A DNA stretch of 64,000 bases from Candidatus Omnitrophota bacterium (GCA_020429915.1 JAGQKV010000015.1:1593-65592), one strand, 5' to 3'; positions 11,038 to 45,485 are shown, counted from the stretch's first letter. Notes: a model not told the origin generated them from the sequence alone. Program-made: numbers and translations.

Positions 11038-11045
11038 TTCGTCTC

Positions 11046-24617: not shown

Positions 24618-25655
24618 TCAGTAACTGTCGGCGGTCAGCTCGACCTTGCCGCGGAAAATCCAGTAGATCGCCACGGTATACGACAGCACGAACGGGATGC
24701 CGATCACCGCGATATTCAGCATGTAATTGAGCGATTTTTGGGACCCGGAGGCGTTGTAAACAGTCAGACTGTACTCCGGCAGCGGATTGGACAGAACGAT
24801 GTGAGGAAAAATCCCGACCCCGAAGAGCGCGATCAGGGCGGTCATGGCCACGCACGATGACAGCAGGGCCAGGAGGTCGCGCCCGTGGTAAATTTCCCGC
24901 GGAATGTTGGCGATCGCCAACATGTTAACCAGCGGAATGAGGAACAACACCGGTGACAGGCGGAATTTCTCGGCCATCTCCGGGATGTAGACCAACGTGG
25001 CCATGGTCGTGGTCGCGTAGCAGATAATGAAGAAAATGATGCAATTGTTGATCCACCCACGGACCTTTTCGTGGATCTCGCCTTCGGTCTTCAGGCACAG
25101 ATAGATCGCGCCGTGCATCATGAACAAGGCGACCGTGGTCACTCCGACCAAAAGGGCGTAAGGATTGAACAGACCCAGAAATGTCCCGGCGTACTCCTTG
25201 TCCGGTCCGAGCGGGATGCCCATGACCAGATTTCCCAGCGCGATCCCCAATACCAGAGTGGCTACGATACTCGACACCGAGAAGCTCACGTCCCAAAACT
25301 GCCGCCAGGCCGGCGAATGATGTTTGCTGCGGAATTCGATGGAAATGGCGCGGAAGATCAAAGACATCAGCAGGAGCATCACTGCAAAATAAAATCCCGA
25401 CGCCAGCGTCGCGTACACGTCGGGAAAGGCAGCAAACAAAGCCCCGCCTCCCGTGACCAGCCACACTTCATTTCCGTCCCACACCGGCCCGATAGAATTG
25501 ATGCTGACCCGGCGCTCGTGATCGGTTTTCATCAGCAGGTGTAACGCACCCACGCCGAGGTCGAAACCGTCCAGCATGGCGTAACCGCTGAACAAAACGC
25601 CGATCAGGACGAACCAGATAAGATTGAGATCGAGAAAGGTAAAATCCATGGTCAA
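24618..25655 (-). CDS. cydB: Cytochrome bd ubiquinol oxidase subunit II
   Basis: 345 aa. Typical CydB N-terminus ([36 protein letters not shown]). It overlaps cydA by 4 nt. Confidence 0.9.
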   Translation of the reverse strand: MTMDFTFLDLNLIWFVLIGVLFSGYAMLDGFDLGVGALHLLMKTDHERRVSINSIGPVWDGNEVWLVTGGGALFAAFPDVYATLASGFYFAVMLLLMSLIFRAISIEFRSKHHSPAWRQFWDVSFSVSSIVATLVLGIALGNLVMGIPLGPDKEYAGTFLGLFNPYALLVGVTTVALFMMHGAIYLCLKTEGEIHEKVRGWINNCIIFFIICYATTTMATLVYIPEMAEKFRLSPVLFLIPLVNMLAIANIPREIYHGRDLLALLSSCVAMTALIALFGVGIFPHIVLSNPLPEYSLTVYNASGSQKSLNYMLNIAVIGIPFVLSYTVAIYWIFRGKVELTADSY

Positions 25656-27001
25656 GCCCTCTGCCTGTCCGCCAAATGTTCTACGTCTTCCGGCCCGTGC
25701 TTGATCTTCCGGTCAAGCAGGAATATGAACAGCACAAACAGCAGCAGATAGATAACGGTAAACATAATCAGTGACGTCAGCACCATATTCGCGGTGACCG
25801 TTTTGGACAAGGCCTCCGAGGTGCGCAATAGTCCGTAGACAATCCACGGCTGGCGGCCAACCTCCGCGGTAAACCAACCGGCCTGATTGGCGATCTGCGG
25901 ACCAAGCACTGAGAAGACAAATGCCCACAACAGCGGCCGGCACTCAAAGAGTTTTCCGCGCAGCAGCATAAACATACCCGTCACGTTGAGGGCGATCAGA
26001 GTGAAACCGATCGCCACCATGATATGATAAAACTGAAAGACGACATTCACCGGAGGCCGGTCCTCCTTCGGAAAGGCGTTCAAGCCGGTGACCGGCGCGT
26101 CGGGATCGCCGTACAGAAGCACGCTGACCATGCGCGGGATCCGGATCCCGAAGTTGACGCGTTGATTCTTCTCGTCCACCCATCCGAAAAGATACAGATC
26201 AGCCGGGGCCGACTCCGGATAGTGGGCCTCCATGGCCGCCATCTTCGGCGGTTGGTGTTCGGCCACCAGTTCGGCGCTGTGGTGCCCGCTGATCAACTGA
26301 CAGACAGAAGCGAACAGGGCCACGGTCAGAGCGATCTTCATCGATGCCTGGGCGAACTCCCGGTGACGGTTGCGTAGCAGATAGTAAGCACTGATGCTCA
26401 GGACCAGCGTGGCGCCGGCCTGCCAACAACCGAGCACGACGTGCATCAACCGGTCCATCGATGAGGGATTGAACACCATGGCCCAAAAGTCGGTGATCTC
26501 CGCCCGTGCCTCCATCCCCTGCCCGACGATGTGATATCCCGCCGGCGTCTGCATCCAGGATCCGGCCACCACGATCCAGATCGACGAAAAATGAGCGCCC
26601 AGACACACCATGATCGCCGATACGAAATGGACCCACGGTTTGACCTTGTCCCAACCGAATAAAAGCACCGCCAAAAAGCCCGATTCCAGAAAGAAGGCGA
26701 AGATTCCCTCCGCTGCCAGGGCGCTGCCGAAAATATCTCCGACGTAACGGGAATAAGTGGCCCAGTTCGTTCCGAACTCGAACTCCATAACGATACCGGT
26801 GGCCACACCGATCGCGAAGGTGAGTCCGAAGACCTTCACCCAAAACCGCGTCATGCTGTGATACAGCGGATTCTTGGTCTTCAGATACATCCCTTCCATG
26901 ATCACCATGATGATCCCCAGCCCGATACTGAGCGGCGGATACAAATAGTGGAAGGCAACGGTTAATGCGAATTGTATTCGTGATAAAAGTAAGACGTCCA
27001 T
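25652..27001 (-). CDS. cydA: Cytochrome bd ubiquinol oxidase subunit I
   Basis: 449 aa. CydA family; quinol-binding Q-loop region and heme ligands are in the expected context. Confidence 0.9.
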
Positions 27002-27088: not shown

Positions 27089-27664
27089 TTACAGGAGCGA
27101 TTGCAGATGCCGCTCCATGGCGGGGAGTTGCTTCGGGGTATCAATCTTATAGTAGCCGCGGATCGTCGCGTTTTGATCAATCAAAAAAACCATCTGATCC
27201 AACTGGAACAAGTCGGCGCGGGCGTCGAGGTGAAAACCGGCATGCATCCAGCTCTCGATTTCCTCCCGCGGTCCGTATAGGAGAAACCATTTTTGCTGCG
27301 CGTCCCCGTCGAGATCGGCGCGGATCCCGGCCAACCGCTCCGGATCAGCGGACACACTGATAATCTGGAAGTTCTCACGTCCGGCAAAGCGACGATACAG
27401 TGCCCGTAACGACTGCAGCGTCGCCTCATGCGGGACGCTGCGCTCCGGCGAAATAAAATGCACAAGCCAAACCTTTCCTTTCATCTTGTGCAGATTGTGT
27501 TTTTCGCCGTTAATATCACTCAGCTCAAAATACGGGACGCCGCCATAGGCAAACCCGCCGAATCCCTGGCCGGCGTCGCGGCGCATCAGATTAAATGCCA
27601 CCGTAGCAGCCACGACGAACAAGACGGCCCACGCCAGGACGACGGGCCGGTCTTCACGCTTCAT
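27089..27664 (-). CDS. SCO1/SenC-like thioredoxin-fold protein lacking the CxxxC copper-binding motif
   Basis: 191 aa. N-terminal TM, then a SCO-like fold (GKVWLVHFISPERSVPHEATLQSL). Where canonical SCO proteins carry CxxxC, this one has FISPER with no Cys. It is the last gene of the oxidase operon. Confidence 0.55.
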   Translation of the reverse strand: MKREDRPVVLAWAVLFVVAATVAFNLMRRDAGQGFGGFAYGGVPYFELSDINGEKHNLHKMKGKVWLVHFISPERSVPHEATLQSLRALYRRFAGRENFQIISVSADPERLAGIRADLDGDAQQKWFLLYGPREEIESWMHAGFHLDARADLFQLDQMVFLIDQNATIRGYYKIDTPKQLPAMERHLQSLL

Positions 27665-27878
27665 GCGGACCCTGCCTTTTTTGCATACGGCGAACCAGAG
27701 AGAACAGGACGAAAAAGATGATGAACGGCAGTGACAAGAAAAGACCGACGGGCCAAATGATCTTCAATAGGTACCCCTGGTCGTCGCGTCCCATACACGA
27801 CGGGCACGCCGCGGCCAATTGCGGAAAGGCCAGCAAGCAGGCCGTGGTGCCTGTCATCAGAAAAGAACGTCGCGCCAT
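27654..27878 (-). CDS. Small exported membrane protein with a CPSC motif
   Basis: 74 aa. Signal peptide, then CPSCMG, then a C-terminal TM helix. It lies between the subunit IV and SCO-like genes and overlaps the latter's start. Confidence 0.45.
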   Translation of the reverse strand: MARRSFLMTGTTACLLAFPQLAAACPSCMGRDDQGYLLKIIWPVGLFLSLPFIIFFVLFSLVRRMQKRQGPHEA

Positions 27879-27879
27879 T

Positions 27880-28161
27880 TCAATAAATCATTTGGTAAGG
27901 AAGGTCATACATTAACGATACGCAAAACAGGACGGCCAGCGGGATCGGCACGCACACCGCAATCTTCAGCGCCTTGGTCTCATAGCGCAAATGCATGTAG
28001 ACCATGGCGACGAGAATCATCTTGGTCGAGGCAAAGGCGAGCAGCATCGCCACCTGCGCGCTTTTCGGCACAGGCAGACTGTTCACTCCCAGTTCCAGCA
28101 CCGTCAGGACGGTCAGCCAGATCGCGTTCACGATATAGAGTTTTTTATGATCCGTGGACAT
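27880..28161 (-). CDS. Cytochrome c oxidase subunit IV (prokaryotic small subunit)
   Basis: 93 aa with 3 TM helices. Position and size match bacterial aa3/caa3 subunit IV. Confidence 0.7.
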   Translation of the reverse strand: MSTDHKKLYIVNAIWLTVLTVLELGVNSLPVPKSAQVAMLLAFASTKMILVAMVYMHLRYETKALKIAVCVPIPLAVLFCVSLMYDLPYQMIY

Positions 28162-28176
28162 GGATGCTTCCCTCCT

Positions 28177-28809
28177 TTAAATCAGGTAAATGACGGTGAA
28201 AACCAGAATCCAGATCAGATCGACGAAGTGCCAGTAGAGCCCGAGGATTTCGACCTTGTCGTAATCCTGCGAAGAGTACCGCCCTCTCATGGCGGCCATC
28301 AGGATGCAGAAGATGTAAATCACCCCGGAGAAAACGTGCAATCCGTGATAACAGGTGGTCACGTAAAACGCGCCCGCGTACACACTGGAGGTGGTCAGGA
28401 ACTTCGTCCCGCTCATTCCGGCCTTGGCCAACTGTTCGCCGAGATGTTCGCTGCCCATGATGAAATGTGTGTACTCATAAACTTGAATGCCCAGAAAGAT
28501 CATGCCGCCGAGCATCGTCAACAACAGGAACTTGACGAGCCCTTTCTGATCGTCACGCTGCACCGAATTCAGGGCCATGACCATGGTAAAACTCGTGCAG
28601 ATCAGCAGAAACGTGTTGAACGCGGTCAACGGAATATTCAGAACCGTTCCCGGCTCGGGCCATGAAGCCGCGCCGGCGCGCAACGCGGCCCCGCCGATAA
28701 GCAATGTCCCGAAACTGAGCCCGTCGATGAGGATAAACAGCCACATCCCGAGCTTCCCGGTGGTCGCGTCTCCCCAAACGTCTTTCCGGACAGACAAAGA
28801 TTGACTCAT
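28177..28809 (-). CDS. Cytochrome c oxidase subunit III
   Basis: 210 aa. Heme-copper oxidase subunit III family (…VYEYTHFIM…HGLHVFSGVIY…LYWHFVDLIWI). Confidence 0.88.
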   Translation of the reverse strand: MSQSLSVRKDVWGDATTGKLGMWLFILIDGLSFGTLLIGGAALRAGAASWPEPGTVLNIPLTAFNTFLLICTSFTMVMALNSVQRDDQKGLVKFLLLTMLGGMIFLGIQVYEYTHFIMGSEHLGEQLAKAGMSGTKFLTTSSVYAGAFYVTTCYHGLHVFSGVIYIFCILMAAMRGRYSSQDYDKVEILGLYWHFVDLIWILVFTVIYLI

Positions 28810-28820
28810 GCCTTCACTCC

Positions 28821-29534
28821 TTAATTTTGCGGTTTGCTAAACGTAAAAGTCAGCTCCTCGGTTCCGCCTTCCGTCAGCGATACCTTTACCTTTTGCGTGC
28901 CGAGCTTTTCATGCCACGCTTCGACTTCATACATACCCGCCGGCAGATTCTCAATGCTGAATTCACCGGTTGTTTCGGACACGTCGAAATACGGGTGTTC
29001 CATGACCGCGATAAATCCGTTCATCCACGGATGCACATCGCACTTCATTTTGACCATCACCTCGGGCTTGTCGAAAGTCCGGGTGATTTTCTTCCTGAAC
29101 TTCGGCATGGCGATATTGAACTCATCATTGACCTCGGCCACCGCATGAACGTTGTGCAGCGTCCCGTCGGGATTGAGGATGTCGATGGGTTGATTGACCA
29201 TCACGCCCATCACGTGCGGATGGTACAAACATCCTTGCTGATCCAATACGGCGGCTTCGGCCGGGGCCGGATAGGCCTTCTTCGGCACCCCGCTGATCAC
29301 CCGGACAAAGACGTTCGCCAAGGTATTGCCTTCCCCTAACACCAGAAAATCCGGTGAGACCGGGTCGGCATGTTTGGTCAGGCAGATCGGATCGGCGTCC
29401 ATCTTGATCGGCCGGAGCTTGGGAACCGTACCCTCGTATATGGCCTTTCCCTTTATGGTCGCGGCCTGCGCGGAGGTCGTCACCATAACAGCAAAAATCG
29501 TTGTCAACAAAATGGGGATGTTACGTGTACTCAT
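28821..29534 (-). CDS. Exported beta-sandwich protein with a candidate type-1 (blue) copper ligand set; possible electron donor for the oxidase
   Basis: Start at the internal Met (MSTRNIPILLTTIFAVMVTTSAQA; cat at 29532-29534). It contains C-x2-H-x2-M (KMKCDVHPWM), like the amicyanin CTPHPFM ligand loop, plus upstream His residues (LYHPHVMGVM). The C-terminal segment resembles a carboxypeptidase-regulatory-like beta-sandwich (GEFSIENLPAGMYEVEAWHEKLG). The functional call is tentative. Confidence 0.45.
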   Translation of the reverse strand: MSTRNIPILLTTIFAVMVTTSAQAATIKGKAIYEGTVPKLRPIKMDADPICLTKHADPVSPDFLVLGEGNTLANVFVRVISGVPKKAYPAPAEAAVLDQQGCLYHPHVMGVMVNQPIDILNPDGTLHNVHAVAEVNDEFNIAMPKFRKKITRTFDKPEVMVKMKCDVHPWMNGFIAVMEHPYFDVSETTGEFSIENLPAGMYEVEAWHEKLGTQKVKVSLTEGGTEELTFTFSKPQN

Positions 29535-29548
29535 GTTACTTCTCCTTT

Positions 29549-30127
29549 CTAATGAATCACAAAAATCACGGTGTAGAAAACACACCAAATAATCGTCAGA
29601 AAATGCCAAAACCAGCCCACCAAGACCAGCGGCGTTTTCTCCTCAGTCGTTATTATACGGCGGCGCGTACGTAATGCCAGCCAAAATACGGCGGCCATGG
29701 CTCCCAGCACATGCACGGCGTGCAGACCGGTCATCGCGAAAATCGACGACGCCGAAATACTTGTTGCCAGGCGGATCCCTTCGCCGGCCAGCGTCTGCCA
29801 CAGCCAGAACTGCATGGCGCCGAATACGGCTCCACAGGCCAATGTGCCCCACAGGTACCGGTTGACGTCTTCGGGCCGCGATCCACCTACGGCGCGTACC
29901 GCCATCTTGTAAAAAACGCTGCTCAATAACAGGATCAATGTATTCGCCGTGGCCTGTATGAACGGTCGGTCACCCGCCCCAAACGAATACCAGTGTGTGG
30001 CCTGGACCCGCAGGACCGTATAGCCGAACAATGCCGTGGCAAAAAGCATCGACCAGGACGCCAAGGCGATCATCATGCCCAGTTGTGCCGTTTGCTGTTT
30101 TTCTTGCGGAGGGATTATTACTGTCAT
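29549..30127 (-). CDS. Second heme-copper oxidase subunit III-family protein (paralogue)
   Basis: 192-aa polytopic protein with subunit-III-like C-terminal helices (HAVHVLGAMAAVFWLALR...WHFLTIIW). It lies directly downstream of subunit I. Confidence 0.7.
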   Translation of the reverse strand: MTVIIPPQEKQQTAQLGMMIALASWSMLFATALFGYTVLRVQATHWYSFGAGDRPFIQATANTLILLLSSVFYKMAVRAVGGSRPEDVNRYLWGTLACGAVFGAMQFWLWQTLAGEGIRLATSISASSIFAMTGLHAVHVLGAMAAVFWLALRTRRRIITTEEKTPLVLVGWFWHFLTIIWCVFYTVIFVIH

Positions 30128-30134
30128 GAATAAA

Positions 30135-31892
30135 CTACGATGCGGCGGTTAGCTTCTCGGTTTGTGAGATCCAGTCGCGGCCTTGAATGGCCGGGTTGCT
30201 GTACTCATGCGGACCGGTGTAAACCGTCGGCATTTGAGCGAAATTACCGTGTGGAATCGGATAATCCACGGTCCACTCAATCGTGGCCGCGTTCCACGGA
30301 TTCCGTTCGGCCTTCTTCCCTTTCATTAGAGACCAGATGAGATTGACCACCAGCACAACCTGAGCCGCGCCGAGCAGCCAGGCCCACCAGCTGATCTGTG
30401 TGTTCAGCGGTTTCAGGTTCTGGAGGAATTCATAAATGTAGGGATCGTACAGCCGACGGTGCTGCCCGGCGTATCCGGTGACCATCATATTGTAGAAGAC
30501 AATATTCAGCGGAATAAACGTTCCCCAAAAATGGATCTTGCCCAACAGCGGATTGAGCATTTTACCGAACATTTTCGGAAACCAGAAGTACAAAGCGGCG
30601 TAAGACCCCATTAAGACACTCGCCGCCAAGGTATAATGAAAATGCCCCACAACAAACATCGAATCGTGGAGATAGATGTCGGAGGTGACCGTCGCCAAAT
30701 ACAGGCCGGTCAAACCGCCGATACCGAAGACAAAGACCACCGACAACGCGAAGAGCATCGGTGCACGCAATTGCAAGGACCCCTTCCAGAGAGTGCCCAG
30801 CCAATTGAGGAAAAAGACCGATGACGGAATACTGATCAGCAGCGTCAAAAACATGAAGGCCTTGCCCAACAACGGACTCATCCCCGTCGTGTACATGTGA
30901 TGCCCCCACACGATCGCGCTGAGACAGGTAATGATGCACATGCAGGTGGCGGTGACCCGGTAACCGAAGGCCGGTTTGCGGGAAAAAACCGATAGCAAGT
31001 CCGAGACGATGCCCCAGATCGGCAGGATCAAGATGTAAACCTCAGGGTGCCCGAAAATCCAGAACACATGCTGGTACAGCAAGGGGTCGCCGCCTTCCAC
31101 GGTCGCCTTGGAACCGGCAATAAAGAATTGTGTCCCGAAGACGTTTTCCAGCAGCAGGAAAATCAGACCGGCGGCGATGATCGGCACGAATACCGCGTTC
31201 AGAATCGCGGCCAACCAGATCCCCCACACGGTCAACGGCATTTGAAAATACCCCATGCCCGGCGCGCGCATGCGGATCACGGTCGTCACGTAGTTGATCG
31301 CGCCCATGATGACAGCGATCCCCATCAGCGTCAGGGACAGCGCCCATAGAGCCTGTCCGTGTCCGGCGATACCGCCGACGGGAGTACTCAACGGCGGGTA
31401 GGACGTCCACCCGGCCGCGGCCGGTCCGGCCGGCAGAAAATGCGAGGCCAACAGGATGACGCCCGACAGGAAGAACGTCCAGAACGAAAACATGTTCAGC
31501 ACAGGGAACGCCATGTCGCGGGCGCCGATCTGCAACGGGATGACAAAATTGGCAAAGGCCCCGCTGAGCAGGGGTGTCACCGCCCAGAAAATCATAATCG
31601 TTCCGTGCATCGTGAAGATCTGGTTATAGATATCCGGGGTGATGATGCCGTCCGAGGCACCGAAGAGCAGCTTTCCGATAATCGGGACGGGCTGTCCGGA
31701 GTACGCCAGCTGCCAGCGGATGAGCATGGCCTGCAACCCGCCCCATAGCAGCCAAAAGGTCCCGAACCATAGGAACTGAATCCCGATCATTTTGTGATCG
31801 GTGCTGAAAATGTATTTGGTTATAAAGGATTGTTTGTGCGCCGTTCCGTCAGACATATAACTCTCTCCCCTTTTTATATTTTCTTGTTCCAC
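30135..31892 (-). CDS. ctaD: Cytochrome c oxidase subunit I
   Basis: 585 aa. Canonical heme-copper oxidase subunit I (FTMHGTIMIFWAVTPLLSGAFANFVIPLQIGARDMAFP...), with the CuB and heme His ligands in context. Confidence 0.95.
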   Translation of the reverse strand: MEQENIKRGESYMSDGTAHKQSFITKYIFSTDHKMIGIQFLWFGTFWLLWGGLQAMLIRWQLAYSGQPVPIIGKLLFGASDGIITPDIYNQIFTMHGTIMIFWAVTPLLSGAFANFVIPLQIGARDMAFPVLNMFSFWTFFLSGVILLASHFLPAGPAAAGWTSYPPLSTPVGGIAGHGQALWALSLTLMGIAVIMGAINYVTTVIRMRAPGMGYFQMPLTVWGIWLAAILNAVFVPIIAAGLIFLLLENVFGTQFFIAGSKATVEGGDPLLYQHVFWIFGHPEVYILILPIWGIVSDLLSVFSRKPAFGYRVTATCMCIITCLSAIVWGHHMYTTGMSPLLGKAFMFLTLLISIPSSVFFLNWLGTLWKGSLQLRAPMLFALSVVFVFGIGGLTGLYLATVTSDIYLHDSMFVVGHFHYTLAASVLMGSYAALYFWFPKMFGKMLNPLLGKIHFWGTFIPLNIVFYNMMVTGYAGQHRRLYDPYIYEFLQNLKPLNTQISWWAWLLGAAQVVLVVNLIWSLMKGKKAERNPWNAATIEWTVDYPIPHGNFAQMPTVYTGPHEYSNPAIQGRDWISQTEKLTAAS

Positions 31893-32695
31893 GGCCAGCC
31901 CCAGTCTTGCGGGACCCCGCTGTCATCCTCTTCCTCACCCCAGTCACTCCAGTCGTCGGTTTCTTCCTGCTCCTGACGAAGTTCTTCGAGCCAGGCTCGA
32001 AAGTCCTCCGGTGAATCGACGGTAAGGAATCCGCGCATCCGGTAATGTCCGTTCCCGCACAGTTCGGCGCAGGCGATCTCGAACTTTCCGCTTTCCTTGG
32101 CCTGAAACCAAAAAGAGGTGATCATGCCGGGAGTCGCATCCTGTTTGATACGAAAGTGGGGGATATAAAAGGTATGAATAACGTCCATCGGAGCCATCTG
32201 CACCACCACCGGCGTGTCGACCGGGATATGCATTTGGTTCTGCGGGGCGATGATATCGTCATCGGTGGCGAAATATCCGTCCGGACCGGCGTAGCGGATA
32301 TTCCAGGCGAACTGTTGAGGCATCACTTCCACGCGCACGACATTTGCGCCCTTGGGAAAATTCCAGAAGGCCTCCTTGAGATCCTTGAAGGCCATCGCCT
32401 CAATTACCGCGTCAATGGAGAAAAATACGGTAAAACCCAGGACCACCGTCGCTACGATATATATTTTCTTGTCACCGCGTTCATAAACCGCCTTGTGCCC
32501 GGGCCGCGCCCGGTAACGAACGATGAAATACACCAATGACAGGACAACGACCGCCATATAAATCGCGACCACTGTATCGGTGTAATGAATGACCTTGTCG
32601 ATCCGGTATCCGTCCAACGAAACATCCTGCGGAGGCTTGATAAACCAGATACCGCTCAAGGCCGAGTGGATGAGGCTTTGGAAGAGAGTTCCCAT
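31874..32695 (-). CDS. ctaC: Cytochrome c oxidase subunit II (CuA; no fused cytochrome c domain)
   Basis: 273 aa. Two N-terminal TM helices. CuA ligands H...CAELCGNGHYRM. There is an acidic C-terminal tail and no CxxCH motif, so this is aa3-type, not caa3. Confidence 0.92.
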   Translation of the reverse strand: MGTLFQSLIHSALSGIWFIKPPQDVSLDGYRIDKVIHYTDTVVAIYMAVVVLSLVYFIVRYRARPGHKAVYERGDKKIYIVATVVLGFTVFFSIDAVIEAMAFKDLKEAFWNFPKGANVVRVEVMPQQFAWNIRYAGPDGYFATDDDIIAPQNQMHIPVDTPVVVQMAPMDVIHTFYIPHFRIKQDATPGMITSFWFQAKESGKFEIACAELCGNGHYRMRGFLTVDSPEDFRAWLEELRQEQEETDDWSDWGEEEDDSGVPQDWGWPWNKKI

Positions 32696-34535: not shown

Positions 34536-36335
34536 TCAAATCTTTTCGCTGAAAATCTGCAGATTTTCCTGCATCCGGAGCAGCAACCGCGACTTCATGG
34601 TGCGGCCGTGCAGTTCCCCGTCCCGGATGGGATGCCACTTACCCGGGACCAGGACCTGAGACTGAATGAAACGTTCGATCGCGGCCTGCAGTTCATTGAC
34701 GTCGATCTTGCGCCTGACCTTGATCGCTTCGTTGACGATCCAGGTCAGACCGTCACCGGTCTTACGAAACTGGTGATTGATGACCTCGGAACGTTCGGCG
34801 ATACGCTTCATAATACTGCGGGTATTACCGCCGGCGACGCGGATCAACCGGTTGTAGCGTTGCTGGAATTCCACGGCCTTACGGCGGCGGTAGTCGTTCA
34901 GTTCCAGGTCCGCCTCCCCGGCGTACGACGCGGCCATGATCTTGCAGAAATCCTCTTCGTCCATAATCGGCCATTTCCCGGCTTCGTAGTGATGCAGGAC
35001 AAACACCGGCAGCAGGCGCAGGATATGCCGGACTAAAAACACCGGCGGATGGTCGATGCCGTCGGGGACCGGACCCTCTCCGGCCGCAGTCTTGATGTGT
35101 TCGAAGTAGTTGAGGACCTTGCGGAAATCTTCCACCCGGTCGGGGTATCGCTTCAGCAGGCGATCACACTGCGCGTGCGTGAAGCCGACGCGCCACAGCA
35201 TGCGGCGATTGCGTTCGCTGCGAAAGTGGGCGTCGAAAATTTCCAGGACCGGATGCTCGTCATAATCCTCCAACGGCTTTTTTTCACGGGTGACGATGAA
35301 ATCCGTCATCTGAATAAAGGTCTGGATGATCTTCCGCGCCCAGTAGCGCTGCTCGGTCAGGGTCGTCGAAAAACGGTCGACATCCTCATAACGGTATTTG
35401 TTGTGCTTCGCCGCGAACTGGCGGATCGACCCGTAATCCAGGATCGCGCCGCTGGCCAGCATGTTGTCGCCGTCCCACGCCAGCCAATTGAAGATATACT
35501 CCTCCTCCATGACGGCCGCCAGCCGCGCGTGCGTGCGGGTGATATACTCGAGCGCGCGCCAGTAGCGTCCCGGCGCGCTCTTGGGAAGCTCGTACACACC
35601 GTTGGCCTCCTGCCGCTGGAGAAAGTAATCGAAGGACCGTTTCAGCTCAGGGAGCTGCCCGGTCTTGAGATAACGGAACAAGTGCGCGGGACGAATCAGA
35701 TTGGGCGCGGTGCGCACACCCAGACCGGTCTTGTCCGGATATTCAATCACCGTCAGACAGCGCTCGGTAGGATATCCTTCCCGGTAAAAAATTTCCGACA
35801 TGATGGCACTGCCGAGCATCTCGTCGAGATCGGCCAGCCCCGAGGCATATCCCAATTCGTCGCTGCCGGTCGGGATCGGCCGGTCCGTTTGCTGGGCCCC
35901 CGGAGACAGGATCGTCACCCCGGTGCCGCAACTGGAAATATCGTAGGTCTTCGAACGGGTCTTGATGCATCCGTTCCAGATGCTGCGGCCGTCACCGGAT
36001 GTTTCGCCGCGTTTATTGTCGTGCTGGATCTGCAGATAACGCGTTGCCATGTACAGGCGGTCTTCGTATCCGTCTTTGGGAAAACGGCGCCGGTTGGCCC
36101 AATCGTATTCGTTGAGGATCTGCAGGGAAAAAGTCTTGAGAATGACCTGCTCGAGATTCTTGGTGATACGGCGGGTATGGTCCTTGGGAATCAGTCCCAG
36201 TTCACGGGCGAGGGGAAAATTGAAATAGATCACCCGGCCGCCGGGACGATAGCGGACCGGATAGTCGATATAGCCCTCCGGACTTACATCCCGCCAGGGA
36301 TGCGTACCGTCGATCTGATCAAACTTTTCATACAT
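34536..36335 (-). CDS. Divergent SelO/YdiU (UPF0061)-family protein adenylyltransferase-like pseudokinase
   Basis: 599 aa. GDGRSI (cf. SelO GDGRA(I/V)). SSCGTGVT...LGSAIMSEIFYREGYPTERCL (cf. KGAGLTPYS...LRSSIRE..A.EAMH.LGIPTTR). The catalytic-loop region WDGDNMLASGAILDYGSI aligns with SelO [23 protein letters not shown]. Confidence 0.5.
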   Translation of the reverse strand: MYEKFDQIDGTHPWRDVSPEGYIDYPVRYRPGGRVIYFNFPLARELGLIPKDHTRRITKNLEQVILKTFSLQILNEYDWANRRRFPKDGYEDRLYMATRYLQIQHDNKRGETSGDGRSIWNGCIKTRSKTYDISSCGTGVTILSPGAQQTDRPIPTGSDELGYASGLADLDEMLGSAIMSEIFYREGYPTERCLTVIEYPDKTGLGVRTAPNLIRPAHLFRYLKTGQLPELKRSFDYFLQRQEANGVYELPKSAPGRYWRALEYITRTHARLAAVMEEEYIFNWLAWDGDNMLASGAILDYGSIRQFAAKHNKYRYEDVDRFSTTLTEQRYWARKIIQTFIQMTDFIVTREKKPLEDYDEHPVLEIFDAHFRSERNRRMLWRVGFTHAQCDRLLKRYPDRVEDFRKVLNYFEHIKTAAGEGPVPDGIDHPPVFLVRHILRLLPVFVLHHYEAGKWPIMDEEDFCKIMAASYAGEADLELNDYRRRKAVEFQQRYNRLIRVAGGNTRSIMKRIAERSEVINHQFRKTGDGLTWIVNEAIKVRRKIDVNELQAAIERFIQSQVLVPGKWHPIRDGELHGRTMKSRLLLRMQENLQIFSEKI

Positions 36336-37970: not shown

Positions 37971-39272
37971 TTACAATTGCCCGATAAACGCCTGATCCTT
38001 GTCGGATAACGCGAATTCGAGCGGATCGTTAAGATTAAGGTTGTTGGGCCTGGAATAGACAGCTTGGACCACGCTGATGTGGCGCATTTTGAAGGCCGCC
38101 TCGCAGTAGCACAAGTAGAAGTTCCACTTGCGAACAAACCGATCGTCCATGCCGAGCTTCTTGACCCGGGCGATCTGCTTGTTGAACAAATGATACCATA
38201 TTTTCAGCGTTTTGGCATATGACGGCGTCATGTCTTCGTAGTGGTGGAGATTGAGCGTGCCGGTAGCATTGATCGCCTGTTGGACGGACCGCACGCTGGG
38301 CAGCAGGCTGCCCGGAAAAATATGCTTCTGGATCCAATCCGTGTTCCGGCGGGCAATCTCGTAGCGGTGGTCCGGGAAAAGGATCATCTGGATCGCCACC
38401 AGACCGTCCTTCTTGAGGACCCGGTGAATGGTTGCGAAATACTCTTTAAGATACTTGTGGCCAACGGCTTCTATCATTTCTATCGATGCGACCTTATCAT
38501 AGGAACCCGTCAAATGTCGGTAGTCCTTCAGCTGTACGTCCACCTTCCCGGTCAGCCCGGCACGGAAGATCCGCTCCTTGGCATACTTGTACTGTTCCTT
38601 GGAAATGGTGACGGTGGTCACCCGGCAGCCGTAATGCTTCGCGGCGTGTTCGGCAAATCCTCCCCAGCCGGTGCCGATCTCCAGGACATGGTCGGTCGGG
38701 CGCAATTGCAGCTTTCGGCACAGGACCTCGTACTTGGCGAACTGCGCCTCCTCCAGCGTCTGCTGGGGGTCCTGAAAATAAGCGGCCGAGTAGGTCATAG
38801 TCGGGTCCAGCCACAGACGGAAGAAATCGTTATTCAGATCGTAGTGGTCCGCAATGTTACGACGGCTTCCGCGAAGGGTGTTCTGCCGGAACCAGCCGTA
38901 ACATTTATTGATCATTCCCACCCAATTCACCGGCGATTTCTTGTCCCGGTCGGTGGCGATCGTGGGATGATTTTCGTGATTCAACAGCATCCAGCGGATC
39001 ACATCGGTAATGTCGGCAGTACTCCAATCTCCGTCGACATAGGCCTCACCGAATCCGACCGAACCGAACAGGACGCACCGGCGGAAAAAACGCATATCAT
39101 GAATATGGATTACCGCCTCGATCTCATGACCTTTACCGTAATTCAGACGGTGTCCGTCGGGAAGGATCATGACCAGACTCCCAAGTGACATGGGCCGGAA
39201 GACCGAGTCGATAATTTTCAGGCACAGCCGGTCGAACCACCGCGGCGCAGAATCAGTGTATTTTGTATGCAC
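37971..39272 (-). CDS. cfa: Cyclopropane-fatty-acyl-phospholipid synthase (Cfa-family SAM-dependent methyltransferase)
   Basis: Cfa N-terminal region (FGSVGFGEAYVDGDW), SAM motif VLEIGTGWGG, and a C-terminal Cfa-type domain. The start is uncertain: the candidate GTG at ~39270-39272 gives a ~433-aa product, and other candidates are at 39191 and 39353. Confidence 0.85.
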   Translation of the reverse strand: MHTKYTDSAPRWFDRLCLKIIDSVFRPMSLGSLVMILPDGHRLNYGKGHEIEAVIHIHDMRFFRRCVLFGSVGFGEAYVDGDWSTADITDVIRWMLLNHENHPTIATDRDKKSPVNWVGMINKCYGWFRQNTLRGSRRNIADHYDLNNDFFRLWLDPTMTYSAAYFQDPQQTLEEAQFAKYEVLCRKLQLRPTDHVLEIGTGWGGFAEHAAKHYGCRVTTVTISKEQYKYAKERIFRAGLTGKVDVQLKDYRHLTGSYDKVASIEMIEAVGHKYLKEYFATIHRVLKKDGLVAIQMILFPDHRYEIARRNTDWIQKHIFPGSLLPSVRSVQQAINATGTLNLHHYEDMTPSYAKTLKIWYHLFNKQIARVKKLGMDDRFVRKWNFYLCYCEAAFKMRHISVVQAVYSRPNNLNLNDPLEFALSDKDQAFIGQL

Positions 39273-40041
39273 GTAGGACCTCCCTCTGTAGTTCAGGATT
39301 TTCACGCTTTTTATGATGCGGTATTTTCTTGATGAAATGCAGTACGGCGGCATGCCAGTGTATGAGAAAGATAACCTTCAGAGTGACCAGCGGTATCGTG
39401 AAGCCCACCCGTAACAGCTCGGTATTGGTCAGCGACCGGCGCTTGCCGGTCATCGTGGTGTAAAGGAACTTCCGTTCCTTTTTCAGGTCGTCGATACGGA
39501 TAAAGAGCCGCTCGCCCGGTACCTTCAGCCGGAAGTCCATCGGGACGTCCAGGTCGATAAACGGTGAGATGTAGTAGTACTTCTTCTGAACGGAACGGAA
39601 GGTGTCCTTGTGCAAAGTTTCCAGCCCCAGGAAAAACGGTTTAAGCTCGCCGAACGTATTGCCGACCTGAGCGACAGCGCAAACGGGACGGTGATCGGGA
39701 TCGAAGCAAAAATAAAAAGACACAGGATTAAACACATAACCGGCCGTACGGACGTTGGTCATCAGCATCACCCGCGCGATGGGCTCATTGACTCCCTTGC
39801 CGCGGGCATAAGCCAGCACATTCTCTTTAACGCCGGTATGACCGAAACAGATATGGTCACTGTCCCGAAATTCGAACAACGCGCGACGGTTGCGGTTGAA
39901 CAGTGGCAGCTTTTGTGACAGCGTGTCGAGTTCATCGAGATCGAGATAGAACATGTAGATCCGGTGCGTAAAGCGGTGCCGCTTGGGAGCGACCCGGCAG
40001 TGCATGACATCAAGCTCATACAGGCAGGAATTTAAATCCAT
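39253..40041 (-). CDS. DUF1365-family protein (UfaO-like candidate)
   Basis: 262 aa. Conserved DUF1365 features (…CRVAPKRHRFTHRIYMFYLDLDEL…GYVFNPVSFYFCFD…). Its partners in this cluster are the classical DUF1365 partners. Confidence 0.75.
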   Translation of the reverse strand: MDLNSCLYELDVMHCRVAPKRHRFTHRIYMFYLDLDELDTLSQKLPLFNRNRRALFEFRDSDHICFGHTGVKENVLAYARGKGVNEPIARVMLMTNVRTAGYVFNPVSFYFCFDPDHRPVCAVAQVGNTFGELKPFFLGLETLHKDTFRSVQKKYYYISPFIDLDVPMDFRLKVPGERLFIRIDDLKKERKFLYTTMTGKRRSLTNTELLRVGFTIPLVTLKVIFLIHWHAAVLHFIKKIPHHKKRENPELQREVLRAYKIH

Positions 40042-41294
40042 TTCAGCTCTCCCAAAAGCCGCTGGGCCACGTTCATTCCGGCTGTGAAACCGTCTTCGTG
40101 AAATCCGTATCTGAAATAGGCGCCGCAGAAAAAGGTGTGTCCGTTCTGGTTCAGTTGATTGAGCCGCGGTTGCGCCTTGATGGCATCCACGTCAAAGAGC
40201 GGGTGATGATACTCCTTCTCCCAAATAATCCTGCCCCGGTCGATATCTCCCGGATCATTGATCGATACAAAGTAATCCCGTTTGCGGGACACGTGCTGCA
40301 GCTTGTTCATAAAGTAAATCGTCGTCGGCAGGGTCCTTCCTTCGCGCCGTGCGATCCGGTAGTTCCACGCTGACCACGCTTTTCGGGTCTTGGGCATTAC
40401 CGAACTGTCGGTGTGGAGCGTCGCCGTATTGGGTTGGTACTTGAATTTGGACAGCAGGTGCTTCTCGTCCGGTGTGGGGTCTGCAAGAATGTCCAGACTT
40501 TGATCGGCATGCGCGGCGAGGATAACCTTGTCGAACGCATGCCGCCGGTCGTCGGCCGTCTTGATTTCAATCCGTCCCGCCTGGCGGCGCACGGCAATCA
40601 CCGGGCTGCCCAGATGCACCTTGCCCTCAAACAACGCCATCACCTTGTCGCGGTATTGCCGACTGCCGCCGACCAGAGTTTTCCATTGGTATTGGGTGTT
40701 TAGCCCCAGGAAGCCGTGGTTCTTGAAAAACCGGACCAGCGTGACGATCGGAAAATCCAGCATCTGTTCGGGCGGAGTCGACCACACCGCCGAACTCATC
40801 GGGACCAAATAGTGATCGAGCATGTCCCGTGCGTATCCCCGGTCCGTGATATAACGGTCCACGGTCCAATCGATGTACGCGTTGTCTTCCAGGACTTCGG
40901 GGGCTTCCTTATTGAAGCGGTTGATGTCCATCAACATCCGGTAGTGTCGGGGTCGAAAAAGATTACGGCGTTGCGAGAACAGGCCGTTCAGTCCGGTGCC
41001 GCAGTATTCCAGACCGGTGGGCAGGTACTGCACGCTGAACGACATGTCGGTGTCCTTCTCTTCAATATCCAGGGTCTTGAAAAATTTGAGAAGGTTCGGA
41101 TACGTCACATGATTGAAAACCATGAAGGCCGAATCGATGTGGATGTCGTCTCCGTCGTCGTCGACCGTCAGCGTGTTCGTATGCCCGCCGGCGTAATTTT
41201 CCTTGTCAAAAAAAGTGATGTCGTATTTATGGCGCAGAAAGTAACCCGCTGCCATTCCCGACACGCCCGTCCCGATGATCGCAATTTTATCCAT
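40032..41294 (-). CDS. NAD/FAD-binding amine-oxidase-like oxidoreductase (COG2907; UfaD-like candidate fatty-acyl desaturase)
   Basis: 420 aa. N-terminal dinucleotide-binding motif MDKIAIIGTGVSGMAAGYFL. The amine-oxidase fold runs full length. Confidence 0.8.
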   Translation of the reverse strand: MDKIAIIGTGVSGMAAGYFLRHKYDITFFDKENYAGGHTNTLTVDDDGDDIHIDSAFMVFNHVTYPNLLKFFKTLDIEEKDTDMSFSVQYLPTGLEYCGTGLNGLFSQRRNLFRPRHYRMLMDINRFNKEAPEVLEDNAYIDWTVDRYITDRGYARDMLDHYLVPMSSAVWSTPPEQMLDFPIVTLVRFFKNHGFLGLNTQYQWKTLVGGSRQYRDKVMALFEGKVHLGSPVIAVRRQAGRIEIKTADDRRHAFDKVILAAHADQSLDILADPTPDEKHLLSKFKYQPNTATLHTDSSVMPKTRKAWSAWNYRIARREGRTLPTTIYFMNKLQHVSRKRDYFVSINDPGDIDRGRIIWEKEYHHPLFDVDAIKAQPRLNQLNQNGHTFFCGAYFRYGFHEDGFTAGMNVAQRLLGELKWI

Positions 41295-42345
41295 GTTTGA
41301 CCTTCTTTTTCAGCTGATAGTGGCTGACCAGCCACTCCCGACCGTTGTCGTAGCCCCACAATTCGGCACACGCCATGAAGAACACCCGCCAGTAAACCCA
41401 CCATTTCCGGTATTCCTGTTCCCCGTAGGTCTGCCGCAGAATCGGCATGATCTCCACCTTATGGGCGTCCATATTGCGCAGCCAGCCTTCCGAGGTTTTT
41501 TGATAGTGGGTCCCCGGGACCTGCCAGTGTTCGGCGATGGCAAAGTCATCCTGAAAGTGGTACAGCAGATCATCCGACGGCATGATACCTCCGGTGAAAA
41601 AATAGCGGGCCATCCAGTCGTAACCGCCGTCGTCAACGGTATAGAAATAGGTGTATTTGCGATGCGTGAAGATATGGATAAACAGCTTTCCGTCATCCTT
41701 CAACCAACCCGCGATACGCTGCAGCAGCTCCTTGTAGTTGCGCATGTGTTCGAACATCTCGATAGAGACGACGCGGTCGTACCGACCCGGCGCCTCAAAG
41801 TCGTTCATATCGGCGGTGCGAATAGTGACGTTCGTAAGTCCGCGCGCCTTGGCCTGGTCTTCAATGTACTCTTTTTGTGTTCGTGAATTGGAGACGCCCG
41901 TGATCCGGCTGCCGGGAAATTTCTCCGCCATGTACAGTGTCAGCGATCCCCAGCCGCACCCGAGATCGAGGACATCCTGACCGTCGCACAGGTCGGCCCG
42001 GCCGCAGGTCAGAAACAACATGTCCTCTTCGGACTGATCGAAATCCGTGACGCCTTTCTTCCAGTATCCGCAGCTGTACTTCATATGTTTGCCCATCACA
42101 TACCGGAAGAACTCGGTCGGGACTTCGTAGTGCTGCTGATTGGCCTCGGTGGTGTTCAACGCGATGGTGGAGCTCTTCATCTCCTCAACGACTTCCTTGA
42201 GCCGCTGCTGGGCGGCCGCCACACCTCCCCGGCCTTCGTTCTTGAGCTTGCTTTTGAGCAGTCCCCGGATACCGAACCGGATGACCGGGTCCGGAATCAG
42301 ATTGCGTTCGAGAAATCCTTGACTCATGAGGGCGATGTTTTTCAT
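41287..42345 (-). CDS. Second Cfa-family class I SAM-dependent methyltransferase (UfaM-like candidate)
   Basis: 352 aa. SAM motif VLDLGCGWGS. Cfa/mycolic-acid-methyltransferase-like C-terminal region (…FEHMRNYKELL…IHIFTHRKY…). Confidence 0.8.
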   Translation of the reverse strand: MKNIALMSQGFLERNLIPDPVIRFGIRGLLKSKLKNEGRGGVAAAQQRLKEVVEEMKSSTIALNTTEANQQHYEVPTEFFRYVMGKHMKYSCGYWKKGVTDFDQSEEDMLFLTCGRADLCDGQDVLDLGCGWGSLTLYMAEKFPGSRITGVSNSRTQKEYIEDQAKARGLTNVTIRTADMNDFEAPGRYDRVVSIEMFEHMRNYKELLQRIAGWLKDDGKLFIHIFTHRKYTYFYTVDDGGYDWMARYFFTGGIMPSDDLLYHFQDDFAIAEHWQVPGTHYQKTSEGWLRNMDAHKVEIMPILRQTYGEQEYRKWWVYWRVFFMACAELWGYDNGREWLVSHYQLKKKVKHG

Positions 42346-43127
42346 GGGTTTGTCCTTTTTGGGGGTAGCGGGATCAGGACGCTGGTCGTTTCCTGATAGC
42401 GTCGGTATTCTTCTCCCCGGGATTTAAGTGATTGTTGCTCCGCCAGTGGAATGCCGGTGATTTTTAAGATGATAAAGACGATGGTCAGCGGCGACACCAC
42501 CGTCAGCCAGCCACCGGGGGTGGCCAAGGCATACAGATACACCGCCGTCCAGATGACGATCTCAAAAAAATAATTGGGGTGGCGGGAATAGGCCCATAAA
42601 CCGATCCGGCAGACCTTCCCCCGGTTATCGGCATCGTTCTGAAATGTCCGCAATTGTTCGTCGGTGATGCTTTCTCCGACAAGACCGATCACAAAAATCA
42701 ACGCCGCCGTCAGCTCCCACGCGTTCAGGCCGGTCCGCGGATTGAACGCCACGCACAGGACCGGAAGGACAACGATCATCTGTAGCAGTGCCTGAAATTC
42801 GAACAGTTTGAAGAAATTCATGCGCGCCCGCTTCCCCCATTTCCGGCGGAACATGGCGTATCGTTTGTCTTCGTGGCCCTCCTGATGCATACGTCTGAAA
42901 ATAAAGAAGATAATCCGGGCGCCCCACAGCAGAAGCAGGACCAGCAACAGTATGTTGCGTTGCGTCCAGCCGGCGCCCCGGACGATAAAGATCGCGGCCA
43001 TCATCGCGAAACCGAATCCCCATCCCATATCCACAATCGTGGCGTCATCATTGCGCAGGTGAATGAGCCAAATCAAGGCCATCATTACCGTTACCGCCAG
43101 ACATCCTGTCAGGTACGCCGTGAGCAT
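42342..43127 (-). CDS. DUF1295-family membrane protein (steroid-5-alpha-reductase / ICMT-like fold)
   Basis: 261-aa polytopic protein with a conserved C-terminal ...GLWAYSRHPNYFFEIVIW... motif. Confidence 0.75.
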   Translation of the reverse strand: MLTAYLTGCLAVTVMMALIWLIHLRNDDATIVDMGWGFGFAMMAAIFIVRGAGWTQRNILLLVLLLLWGARIIFFIFRRMHQEGHEDKRYAMFRRKWGKRARMNFFKLFEFQALLQMIVVLPVLCVAFNPRTGLNAWELTAALIFVIGLVGESITDEQLRTFQNDADNRGKVCRIGLWAYSRHPNYFFEIVIWTAVYLYALATPGGWLTVVSPLTIVFIILKITGIPLAEQQSLKSRGEEYRRYQETTSVLIPLPPKRTNP

Positions 43128-43136
43128 CCTTTCTCC

Positions 43137-43679
43137 CTATTTTTGCGGATCCTTGGATCCGTTAGCAGTGCTACCGTCCATCACGGCTTCGAGCTTAAAG
43201 AACCATTTCATCAAGAGACCGGACAACTGTTCGACCTCTTTCCGCTCCAAAAGGTAGACGGACTGCTGAATCATTTCACTGAAACCGAAAAATACTGTCC
43301 GGATGATTTCCTCCCCGGCCGGGGTAATGTGAATCAGGTTCACGCGCCGGTCATGCGCGGCCGGGACCCGGCTGATATAACCGTCCTTCGTCATCCGGTC
43401 CAGCAACCGGGTGATGTTGGAGGGCGTTACAATCATGTGGTATCCCAAATCATTCTGGGAAATCCCTTCCCCCTGCCCCATGAATTTGATCAGCATCAGG
43501 GCGTTAAACTTGACCGGCGTGAGATTGTGCGGTCGGAAGAATTCATCCATACGTTTCTCTAAAAGGGAATACACACAAAAAATGCCGTGAAAGACCTCGG
43601 CACTGGGCCGTCCTTTAATGGCGTTGAAGTAGAAATCCTTGCGCGATGGCCGGGTTGGTCCGTTAGTTTTATTAATCAT
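43137..43679 (-). CDS. MarR-family transcriptional regulator (first gene of the lipid-modification cluster)
   Basis: 180 aa. Winged-HTH region (ISQNDLGYHMIVTPSNITRLLDRMTKDGYISRVPAAHDRRVNLIHITPAGEE). Confidence 0.85.
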   Translation of the reverse strand: MINKTNGPTRPSRKDFYFNAIKGRPSAEVFHGIFCVYSLLEKRMDEFFRPHNLTPVKFNALMLIKFMGQGEGISQNDLGYHMIVTPSNITRLLDRMTKDGYISRVPAAHDRRVNLIHITPAGEEIIRTVFFGFSEMIQQSVYLLERKEVEQLSGLLMKWFFKLEAVMDGSTANGSKDPQK

Positions 43680-44849: not shown

Positions 44850-45130
44850 TGAGCCACGCGAACCCACAACAGCAACCAGATAAGCCAAGACTGGTTATTA
44901 TAGACTGGGAAGATAGCGTCCAACCCATAGCGCAGTGGATGTATTTATGCGACCTTGACCAACATCAGATTGTAAAGTGTCGGTCTGTTGGATGGTTGAT
45001 TGGCGATGGGCGCAGGGTCAAAGCATTGGCGCAAAATTTGGGTGATATTGGCCGTAAAGATAGCATCCAAGTCAGCGGCATACTTAAGATCCCCGCGCGC
45101 TGCATCACCAGAATTCAGGATTTAGGCTAG
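44849..45130 (+). CDS. Hypothetical 93-aa protein translationally coupled to the transposase (IS passenger or accessory gene)
   Basis: A TAATG overlap links it to the transposase stop. No family call. Confidence 0.35.
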   Translation: MSHANPQQQPDKPRLVIIDWEDSVQPIAQWMYLCDLDQHQIVKCRSVGWLIGDGRRVKALAQNLGDIGRKDSIQVSGILKIPARCITRIQDLG

Positions 45131-45143
45131 AAGGCGGTTATTT

Positions 45144-45290: not shown

Positions 45291-45430
45291 TGACTCCTTT
45301 GTTAAGGGAGGCTTAATTGCCTCCCAATCTGCTCGTCGAGGCTAGACAAAAAAACACAATAAAAAACCCGAAATATACATTGAATAGTTTAAGGCTAGTG
45401 ATAATATGGTTTTAGGGCAAAAAAAAATCT

Positions 45431-45459: not shown

Positions 45460-45485
45460 GTTGTACCTTTTAATGCTCTGTTTTG

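Follow-up and report, generated by a model that had tools for sequence, protein, structure and literature searches.

A candidate cupredoxin electron donor encoded within an A-family haem-copper oxidase operon of Candidatus Omnitrophota

Introduction

The route by which electrons pass from quinone to A-type haem-copper oxidases is unresolved in several abundant, mostly uncultured phyla. A survey of the Omnitrophota records complexes I and II, together with quinone and a 'cytochrome c oxidase', and names no carrier connecting them (PMC10066038). The question takes a concrete form in a 64-kb stretch of Candidatus Omnitrophota DNA, here called the window, which carries on its minus strand an oxidase operon of eight tightly packed open reading frames (ORFs; 27089-32695). 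Subunit II of this oxidase (CoxII) has a CuA centre without a fused haem c domain, and the 64-kb window encodes no c-type cytochrome, the CxxCH motif being absent from every plausible gene. Which protein, then, delivers electrons to CuA? An earlier note on this DNA pointed to an exported protein encoded in the middle of the operon, which we call Cupr. The analysis presented here indicates that Cupr is a two-domain cupredoxin, belonging to a large family whose genes accompany CuA-only oxidases, and that it probably serves as electron donor or relay to the window oxidase. Positions are those of the whole stretch, and related loci are labelled L001-L087.

Results and Discussion

Cupr has a predicted amicyanin-type copper site

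The genes of the operon follow the order CoxII, CoxI, Cox3a, Cupr, Cox3b, CoxIV, a mini-protein and a SCO-like protein, with intergenic spacings of -19 to +15 nt. Cupr, its start being placed at the ATG position used by its homologues, has a signal peptide with a cleavage site between AQA and A, and carries the motif KMKCDVHPWM. Comparison with PDB sequences by phmmer aligned residues 92-177 to amicyanin (E = 2e-4 with the family profile), and His127, Cys165, His168 and Met171 fell on the four amicyanin copper ligands, which we take to be His53, Cys92, His95 and Met98, with the same C-x2-H-x2-M loop. None of the four residues varies among 36 homologues with 55-85% identity to the window protein (alignment A1). 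An AlphaFold2 (AF2) model built on this alignment has a pLDDT (predicted local distance difference test) score of 89.6, and the top Foldseek matches in the PDB are amicyanin, plastocyanin and pseudoazurin (E = 1e-5 to 1e-3; TM-scores, normalised to the target, of 0.58-0.69). Cupr combines the Greek-key beta-sandwich fold of type-1 cupredoxins with their His / Cys-x(n)-His-x(m)-Met ligand set. The cupredoxin-like character suggested in the earlier note is thereby upheld, with a complete amicyanin-type set of ligands, and on its sequence and modelled fold we assign Cupr as a type-1 copper cupredoxin that is predicted to bind copper.

Outside this domain, residues 185-232 match PF13620 over the second half of CarboxypepD_reg (the C-terminal ~50 residues) and the C-terminal region also matches NOMO-type repeats, while the N-terminal strand of Cupr is similar to the start of the CarboxypepD_reg domain. 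The cupredoxin thus appears to be inserted into a CarboxypepD_reg-like beta-sandwich.

Four further residues stand out in the family beyond the type-1 site. Cys51 and Cys102 are invariant and His55 and His107 are conserved at about 90%, in the motifs 'MDADPxC...H' and 'GCxYxPH', respectively. A second metal site formed by Cys51, His55, Cys102 and His107 was considered and judged less likely, as the two histidines are only ~90% kept, with Asn, Arg or Tyr in their place in some members; a disulfide between Cys51 and Cys102 is probably the better interpretation.

Cupr genes accompany CuA-only oxidases and complex-III-type modules

The Cupr family is widespread. It comprises 6,949 clusters at 90% identity and is present in at least 596 GTDB species representatives, under the labels Omnitrophota, Acidobacteriota, Planctomycetales, Marinimicrobia/Fidelibacterota, Latescibacterota, Gemmatimonas, Verrucomicrobiia, Binatia, Calditrichaceae and others. 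The nearest relatives of the window protein come from metagenome-assembled genomes (MAGs) of Candidatus Omnitrophota. One related locus, L084, encodes a Cupr 85% identical to that of the window and repeats both the eight-gene order and the adjoining cydAB genes. The recurrence of this order, together with the invariance of the copper ligands in the 36 homologues, argues that the features of the operon are not due to chance.

Gene neighbourhoods were counted in the best 80 Cupr loci, from a genome scan seeded with two ligand-bearing peptides, for which the neighbouring genes constitute an unbiased sample. A CoxI or CoxII gene lies within 600 bp of Cupr in 56 loci and within 3 kb in 65. Respiratory genes adjoin Cupr in 74 of the 80, and in 45 Cupr is flanked by a complex-III-type module and an oxidase. 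In 30 of these 45 it sits between ActC-ActD-ActF genes of alternative complex III (ACIII) and the oxidase genes, and in 15 between the latter and a cytochrome b plus a ~940-residue multihaem cytochrome c. The other neighbourhoods hold oxidase genes only (25/80), a bc-type module only (3/80), an ACIII-like module only (1/80) or no respiratory neighbour (6/80, mostly short contigs). The identities of ActD and the NrfD-like ActC were established by Pfam searches on L074, and those of the bc-type module on L055.

The place of Cupr within these clusters is not fixed: its gene may precede CoxI or CoxII, follow Cox3b or the SCO-like gene or, as in the window, stand between the Cox3 genes. Such variability favours functional linkage, or selection for co-expression, over inherited gene order. 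The associated subunits II resemble that of the window. The CuA motif C-x-[EQ]-x-C-x3-H-x2-M is kept in 63 of the 65 CoxII ORFs in these loci, and CxxCH occurs in a single one of the 65, which belongs to a separate oxidase cluster, such that no Cupr-linked CoxII has a haem c domain.

It is common for a genome to encode two or three copies of Cupr, some of them distant from oxidase genes (L020, L055, L072, L074). L074 has a second paralogue at 9842-10636, with a lipoprotein signal (LAGC) and an Ala/Pro-rich linker, transcribed divergently from an ActCDF-Cupr-oxidase operon.

The ACIII genes upstream of Cupr are limited to ActC (NrfD-like), ActD (PF11821) and an ActF-like gene, short of the full ActA-F set, and most ActC-ActD-ActF-Cupr loci contain no ORF with a CxxCH or iron-sulfur motif. 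Operons of the order ActC-ActD-ActF-Cupr-CoxI-Cox3-CoxIV-mini-CoxII occur in L026, L031, L033, L043, L044, L051, L054, L056, L066, L074 and L078-L080; they span ~6.4-10 kb per locus and encode an ACIII membrane arm without ActA, ActB and ActE and without a CxxCH or iron-sulfur ORF. L032, L058 and L077 have ActA and ActB genes in addition, on the opposite strand, and L058 also has a second ActC. Neither the Cupr family nor the mini-protein nor an ActCDF-cupredoxin-oxidase operon was found described in a full-text search of the literature.

Donor, bound partner or chaperone

We consider it probable that Cupr is an electron donor or relay to the window oxidase, because it has the ligand set and fold of a type-1 cupredoxin, no other donor is visible in the window, its association with oxidase genes is conserved and CoxII is of the CuA-only kind. 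The dedicated donor proposed by the earlier note is well supported to the extent that comparative genomics ties the family strongly to CuA-only oxidases and to reducing complexes. We infer the partners and the direction of transfer as follows. Electrons from quinol would pass through a complex-III-type module, encoded elsewhere in the genome, to the type-1 copper of Cupr, and from there to the CuA centre of CoxII, the low-spin haem, the haem-CuB centre and O2. Cupr would then take the place of the soluble or fused cytochrome c of classical oxidases, with the CarboxypepD_reg-like sandwich perhaps acting as a docking or spacer module.

Cupr might instead be a bound partner subunit that, like AcoP of Acidithiobacillus ferrooxidans, stabilises or tunes the oxidase and perhaps relays electrons, without being a mobile dedicated donor. 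Its gene does lie inside the structural operon, between the two subunit III genes, and elsewhere it stands between complex-III-type and oxidase genes as expected for a component of a supercomplex; the extra beta-sandwich could be a permanent docking domain, some copies are lipid-anchored, and AcoP, itself a cupredoxin, is encoded in the rus operon, which also contains cox genes (PMC4059628, PMC10804444). Most copies, however, including that of the window, have a cleavable signal peptide and no membrane anchor, the additional copies found in many genomes are in part encoded away from the oxidase, and the ligands are the classical blue type-1 set. A permanently bound partner is in our judgement unlikely. 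Electron relay is common to this alternative and to the donor reading, and if the bound form is included, a role for Cupr as donor or relay becomes quite likely.

A third role, that of a copper chaperone or store for CuA or CuB assembly, would make Cupr a functional analogue of PCuAC that makes up for the missing cysteines of the SCO-like protein. A cupredoxin-like fold is found in PCuAC too (PMC9145763), no functional SCO or PCuAC is encoded in the window operon, and Cupr adjoins ctaA, ctaB and SCO genes in L055 and L086. However, a regular-expression search for the PCuAC motif H(M)x10Mx21HxM found no match in Cupr, an absence that led us to discard a PCuAC-like function, and no PCuAC model matches any protein of the operon. 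The rigid His-Cys-His-Met ligands are of the electron-transfer type, a canonical CxxxC SCO is encoded as well in most Cupr loci, and a position between complex-III-type and oxidase genes is unexpected for a chaperone. We regard this role as highly improbable.

Some observations weigh against Cupr as the donor. The clustering of its four ligands round one metal is taken solely from the residue-by-residue alignment to the solved amicyanin. No Pfam cupredoxin model matches Cupr, and the amicyanin equivalog model TIGR02657 gives 18.1 bits against a cut-off of 110.2; because curated cupredoxin models miss the family, NCBI names its members 'hypothetical' or 'carboxypeptidase regulatory-like', and the label 'plastocyanin' is applied to them by JGI only. 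Ligand conservation in the 80 loci is true by construction, so that independent evidence of it comes solely from alignment A1 and from second copies retrieved by tblastn. The isoelectric points (pI) of mature Cupr (5.8) and of the periplasmic domain of CoxII (4.4) do not indicate complementary bulk charges. The reductant of Cupr, be it ACIII, a bc complex or a c-type cytochrome, is not encoded in the 64-kb window, leaving the upstream half of the chain unseen. Finally, L082 and L083 contain the same oxidase subclass and no Cupr in the sequence covered (a 3,960-bp contig in the case of L083); an operon-encoded Cupr is therefore not obligatory.

A bolder scheme can be drawn, in which a cytochrome-c-free chain has Cupr as its sole redox carrier from quinol oxidation to CuA; the ActCDF arm (without ActA, ActB and ActE), Cupr and an A-type oxidase form one operon-encoded supercomplex in many phyla; and the CxxC mini-protein and its Cys-less SCO-fold partner are a hitherto unrecognised two-component thiol/copper module for CuA. 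Taken as a whole, this scheme seems to us rather unlikely.

As the probable donor or relay, Cupr is a concrete candidate for the missing link at the quinone-oxidase connection, and its family warns against reading cytochrome c dependence from the presence of coxAB.

The oxidase subunits

The eight-gene operon described in the earlier note, with its position, the identities of its genes and a CuA-only CoxII, was borne out by ORF calls, Pfam and NCBIfam matches and sequence motifs (Table 1); all eight genes are on the minus strand.

Table 1. Features of the oxidase operon and of the adjoining cydAB genes in the window
Feature	Position	Strand	Evidence or residues
CoxII, subunit II	31874..32695	-	PF00116, E = 4e-14
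CoxI, catalytic subunit, A1-type haem-copper oxidase	30135..31892	-	PF00115, E = 1.6e-137
Cox3a, divergent subunit III	29549..30127	-	PF00510, E = 1e-7; NF050119, E = 1e-25
Cupr, exported, 237 residues, two-domain cupredoxin	28821..29534	-	amicyanin alignment, AF2, Foldseek; PF13620
Cupr cupredoxin domain, residues 92-178	29001..29261	-	predicted ligands His127, Cys165, His168, Met171
Cox3b, conventional short subunit III, 210 residues	28177..28809	-	PF00510, E = 5e-15
CoxIV, small prokaryotic subunit IV	27880..28161	-	PF03626, E = 1.2e-10
Mini-protein, 74 residues, AACPSC and one transmembrane helix	27654..27878	-	no Pfam/NCBIfam match
SCO-like protein, 191 residues, no cysteines	27089..27664	-	weak AhpC-TSA and SCO1/SenC matches
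cydA	25652-27001	-	PF01654, E = 1e-169
cydB	24618-25655	-	PF02322, E = 4e-103

CoxII consists of two transmembrane helices and a CuA domain with the motif H-x34-CAELCGNGHYRM (pattern H-x34-C-A-E-L-C-x3-H-x2-M); it has neither a cytochrome c domain nor CxxCH, and scores 138 bits with TIGR02866, under the cut-off of 147.7. Its C-terminus (31874-31990) is made up of an acidic linker of ~30 residues followed by 'VPQDWGWPWNKKI'. The Trp-rich tail motif, (V/I)PxDWGWPW or DWGWAW, is kept in the window, L001, L082 and L086, four members of the oxidase subclass having the mini-protein/SCO-like pair; no WGWPW-type CoxII tail was found in the other loci searched, L046 included. Electrostatic docking of the acidic tail with Cupr was considered and dropped, the bulk pI values being unsupportive.

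CoxI has the A1-type signature GHPEVY, starting at residue 281. The HPEVY motif provides a His ligand, the Glu of the D-channel and the cross-linked Tyr. With this motif in a subunit I of haem-copper oxidase fold, and a binuclear CuA in subunit II, the window enzyme is an A-family haem-copper oxidase. The solved chains closest to CoxI are subunits I of actinobacterial and P. denitrificans aa3 oxidases (E = 1e-117 to 1e-108), and its score with TIGR02891 (576.8) is under the cut-off of 670.75, identifying it as a divergent member of the A-family. Relative to the actinobacterial aa3 subunit I, CoxI has an insertion of about 14 residues (PVPIIGKLLFGASDGI; residues 66-79) in an N-terminal loop. 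Neither ctaA nor ctaB is in the 64-kb window, although both genes flank related operons, and the label 'aa3' is for this reason unverifiable for the window oxidase.

The two subunits III share 24-26% identity and both belong to PF00510. Cox3a matches PDB subunit III chains down to E = 7.5e-16, and Cox3b matches the CyoC, QoxC and CtaE models at E = 1e-28 to 1e-31; most related loci encode a single Cox3, which is Cox3b-like. The earlier note had singled out the duplication. That it is non-standard is not borne out: seven related loci also have two copies (L001, L021, L046, L069, L082, L083, L086), and two coxIII copies are the norm for a conserved class of cox cassettes (PMC5317091). A second subunit III gene is an ordinary feature of cassettes of this type, and the two paralogues, together with subunit IV, would be structural subunits of the oxidase subclass.

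The mini-protein and the SCO-like protein are encoded by a conserved gene pair

No Pfam or NCBIfam model matches the mini-protein, and a word-based search found three close homologues only; a pattern search and a local hidden Markov model (HMM) placed the family in ~56 of the 80 Cupr loci. Its members share a plan of an optional signal-like N-terminus, A-C-x-x-C, a stretch of ~10 residues, a single transmembrane helix and a basic tail. A-C-x-x-C is invariant, is usually followed by [FY]-G, and reads A-C-P-S-C in the window. Short forms start at MVFCAVCFGDP, from which the mature mini-protein is best read as N-out/C-in, with CxxC at the extreme periplasmic N-terminus. The gene may follow CoxIV, precede CoxII or stand between Cupr and CoxI. 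No meaningful match came from a profile search against PDB sequences. Two other ideas about the mini-protein were set aside: Tat export through 'RRSFL', since the twin arginine is not kept in the three close homologues, and a stand-in for a CoxII helix (compare subunit IIa of Thermus ba3), since CoxII shows two hydrophobic transmembrane stretches of its own.

The AF2 model of the SCO-like protein (pLDDT 86.7) has a transmembrane helix at residues 3-33 and a SCO/thioredoxin fold, with Bacillus subtilis Sco (BsSco, 1xzo) as top Foldseek match (E = 3e-12), followed by 4hde, 1on4 and 1wp0. PF02630 scores 19.7 bits, under the cut-off of 22.8. The membrane-anchored fold of SCO1/SenC proteins is present, but the CxxxC pair and the distal His are missing, the aligned positions reading ERSVPH (for C-x3-C) and D-Q-M (for H-S/T). 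From an exhaustive HMMER search of 1.84 billion representatives, 152 sequences were examined. Of these, 27 (clusters at 50% identity) make up the SCO-like subfamily, with the motifs RDxxxxFGxxx[YF]G and [LV][LV]DQN; 24 of the 27 lack CxxxC and three keep it, and several have C-x5-C.

In every context examined (the window, L001 and L081-L087) the mini-protein gene lies directly upstream of the SCO-like gene, the order in pair-bearing operons being COX2-COX1-COX3-COX3-COX4-mini-SCO-like. Overlaps of 8-20 nt are seen where both genes are called (11 nt in the window); L001 has the two end to end, and L085 has no gene call for the mini-protein. We read the two as a translationally coupled accessory pair. 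They also represent two unannotated accessory families, of relevance to how CuA sites are built.

The earlier note suggested that the copper-chaperone function of SCO is split between the two proteins. The coupling stands, as a conserved and usually overlapping gene pair. Replacement of SCO does not: the mini-protein is also present in ~50 loci in which SCO keeps CxxxC, and L086 encodes the pair together with a canonical SCO1/SenC and DUF420, with the SCO gene four genes downstream in the same operon, which led us to reject a split chaperone and to view the pair as an extra module. This CxxxC-containing SCO beside the pair agrees with what the earlier note had named as counter-evidence, and comes from the related operon and not from the window's own genome. 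The L086 operon (5640-14143; GCA_900491325.1, a MAG from a hydrothermal vent) runs COX2-COX1-COX3-COX3-COX4-mini-SCO-like (CxxxC retained)-Cupr-CtaA-CtaB-canonical SCO-DUF420, and serves as the full-set reference for the reduced version in the window.

We would tentatively assign the pair to thiol or copper handling or to CuA-subunit stabilisation, acting in CuA-subunit biogenesis beside a canonical SCO encoded elsewhere. The two proteins may instead be supernumerary structural subunits, or the SCO-like gene a decaying relic, with no copper or thiol role. The loss of all three copper ligands, the place of the mini-protein gene amid structural genes and the canonical SCO that coexists with the pair in L086 all agree with this. 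Against it, A-C-x-x-C is the sole invariant feature of the mini-protein across phyla, pointing to thiol or metal chemistry, and the SCO-like subfamily is full length with conserved motifs of its own in 27 clusters, so that it is no relic. We see this alternative, whose purely structural form is the chief competitor of our assignment, as doubtful yet worth keeping in mind; structural and assembly roles for the pair are inseparable by sequence alone.

Genomic setting

The cydAB genes of a cytochrome bd quinol oxidase start 87 bp downstream of the cox operon. Their adjacency, also claimed in the earlier note, holds here as it does in L084, and a promoter and terminator scan gave no signal beyond shuffled controls that would split cox from cydAB. 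The 64-kb window contains no ACIII, bc complex, canonical SCO or DUF420 gene. Other neighbours of the operon are unrelated to it: an ABC-F ATPase, a cyclopropane fatty-acid gene cluster and an MBOAT gene. An ORF of 599 residues at 34536-36335 has no Pfam match, and an equally long, Pfam-less ORF stands at the matching position by the ABC-F ATPase in L084. The cluster at 37971-43679 encodes two cyclopropane fatty-acid synthase-like methyltransferases, DUF1365, an amine-oxidase-like flavoprotein, DUF1295 and a MarR regulator. GC content falls to 0.458 in 43986-46000, against ~0.55 elsewhere, and this region may be a mobile element; its ORF 43986-44849 has a Cys-rich, Zn-ribbon-like N-terminus.

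Comparison with known systems

Amicyanin of Paracoccus (TIGR02657; PDB 1aac, 1mda) is the closest match to Cupr in both sequence and fold, and the two have in common the 'HNVH' context of the N-terminal His ligand and the short C-x2-H-x2-M loop. Amicyanin, however, is a single domain of ~105 residues that is encoded in the mau cluster and accepts electrons from methylamine dehydrogenase, whereas Cupr has 237 residues with an added beta-sandwich and neighbours oxidase genes, not mau genes. Cupr is amicyanin-like, but not an amicyanin.

The oxidase cassette itself has relatives among the two-coxIII cassettes described previously (PMC5317091), with which it shares the order CoxII-CoxI-CoxIII-CoxIII-CoxIV; in some relatives (L046, L086) assembly genes come next. 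The window differs in having a cupredoxin gene between the coxIII copies, and in lacking ctaA, ctaB, canonical SCO and DUF420. The SCO-like protein resembles SCO1/SenC (BsSco 1xzo, PF02630) and TlpA in its N-terminal membrane anchor and SCO-type thioredoxin fold, and shares homology with the canonical SCO proteins encoded in related operons. It differs from SCO1/SenC in lacking the copper-binding CxxxC and His, and in being part of a separate subfamily whose genes are coupled to that of the CxxC mini-protein.

Auracyanin, the blue copper protein of Chloroflexus and Roseiflexus, accepts electrons from ACIII (PMC8552683, PMC7439408) and is described as carrying them from the ActE subunit of ACIII to the photosynthetic reaction centre (PMC8552683). 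Its membrane tethering, which halocyanin shares, is similar to that of the predicted lipoprotein copy of Cupr in L074, and the position of Cupr directly after ActC-ActD-ActF in 30 of the 80 loci recalls the same partnership. Auracyanin differs in being a single domain of another cupredoxin subfamily, and lies outside the top 50 fold matches of Cupr. To our knowledge its gene does not stand beside an oxidase operon.

In archaeal oxidase systems, sulfocyanin (SoxE) and halocyanin are cupredoxins that serve oxidases in place of cytochrome c, and the blue-copper donors or partners of terminal oxidases or ACIII also include rusticyanin, sulfocyanin, halocyanin and plastocyanin. AcoP, from the rus operon of A. 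ferrooxidans, is a cupredoxin partner of a haem-copper oxidase (PMC4059628, PMC5982212). Like Cupr, AcoP, rusticyanin, sulfocyanin and halocyanin are cupredoxins encoded with, or feeding, haem-copper oxidases; unlike Cupr, they are confined to acidophiles or archaea, are single-domain proteins and have no detected sequence relation to it. The Cupr family, in contrast, spans Omnitrophota, Acidobacteriota, Planctomycetota-labelled MAGs, Marinimicrobia, Latescibacterota, Gemmatimonadota, Verrucomicrobiota and others. Cupredoxin donors and partners of terminal oxidases and of ACIII are already established, and the way of working ascribed to Cupr is alike, but Cupr is a large family of its own. The cupredoxin-fed oxidase is thus a known kind; what is new here is a widespread, uncharacterised family of candidate cupredoxin donors, along with two unannotated accessory families.

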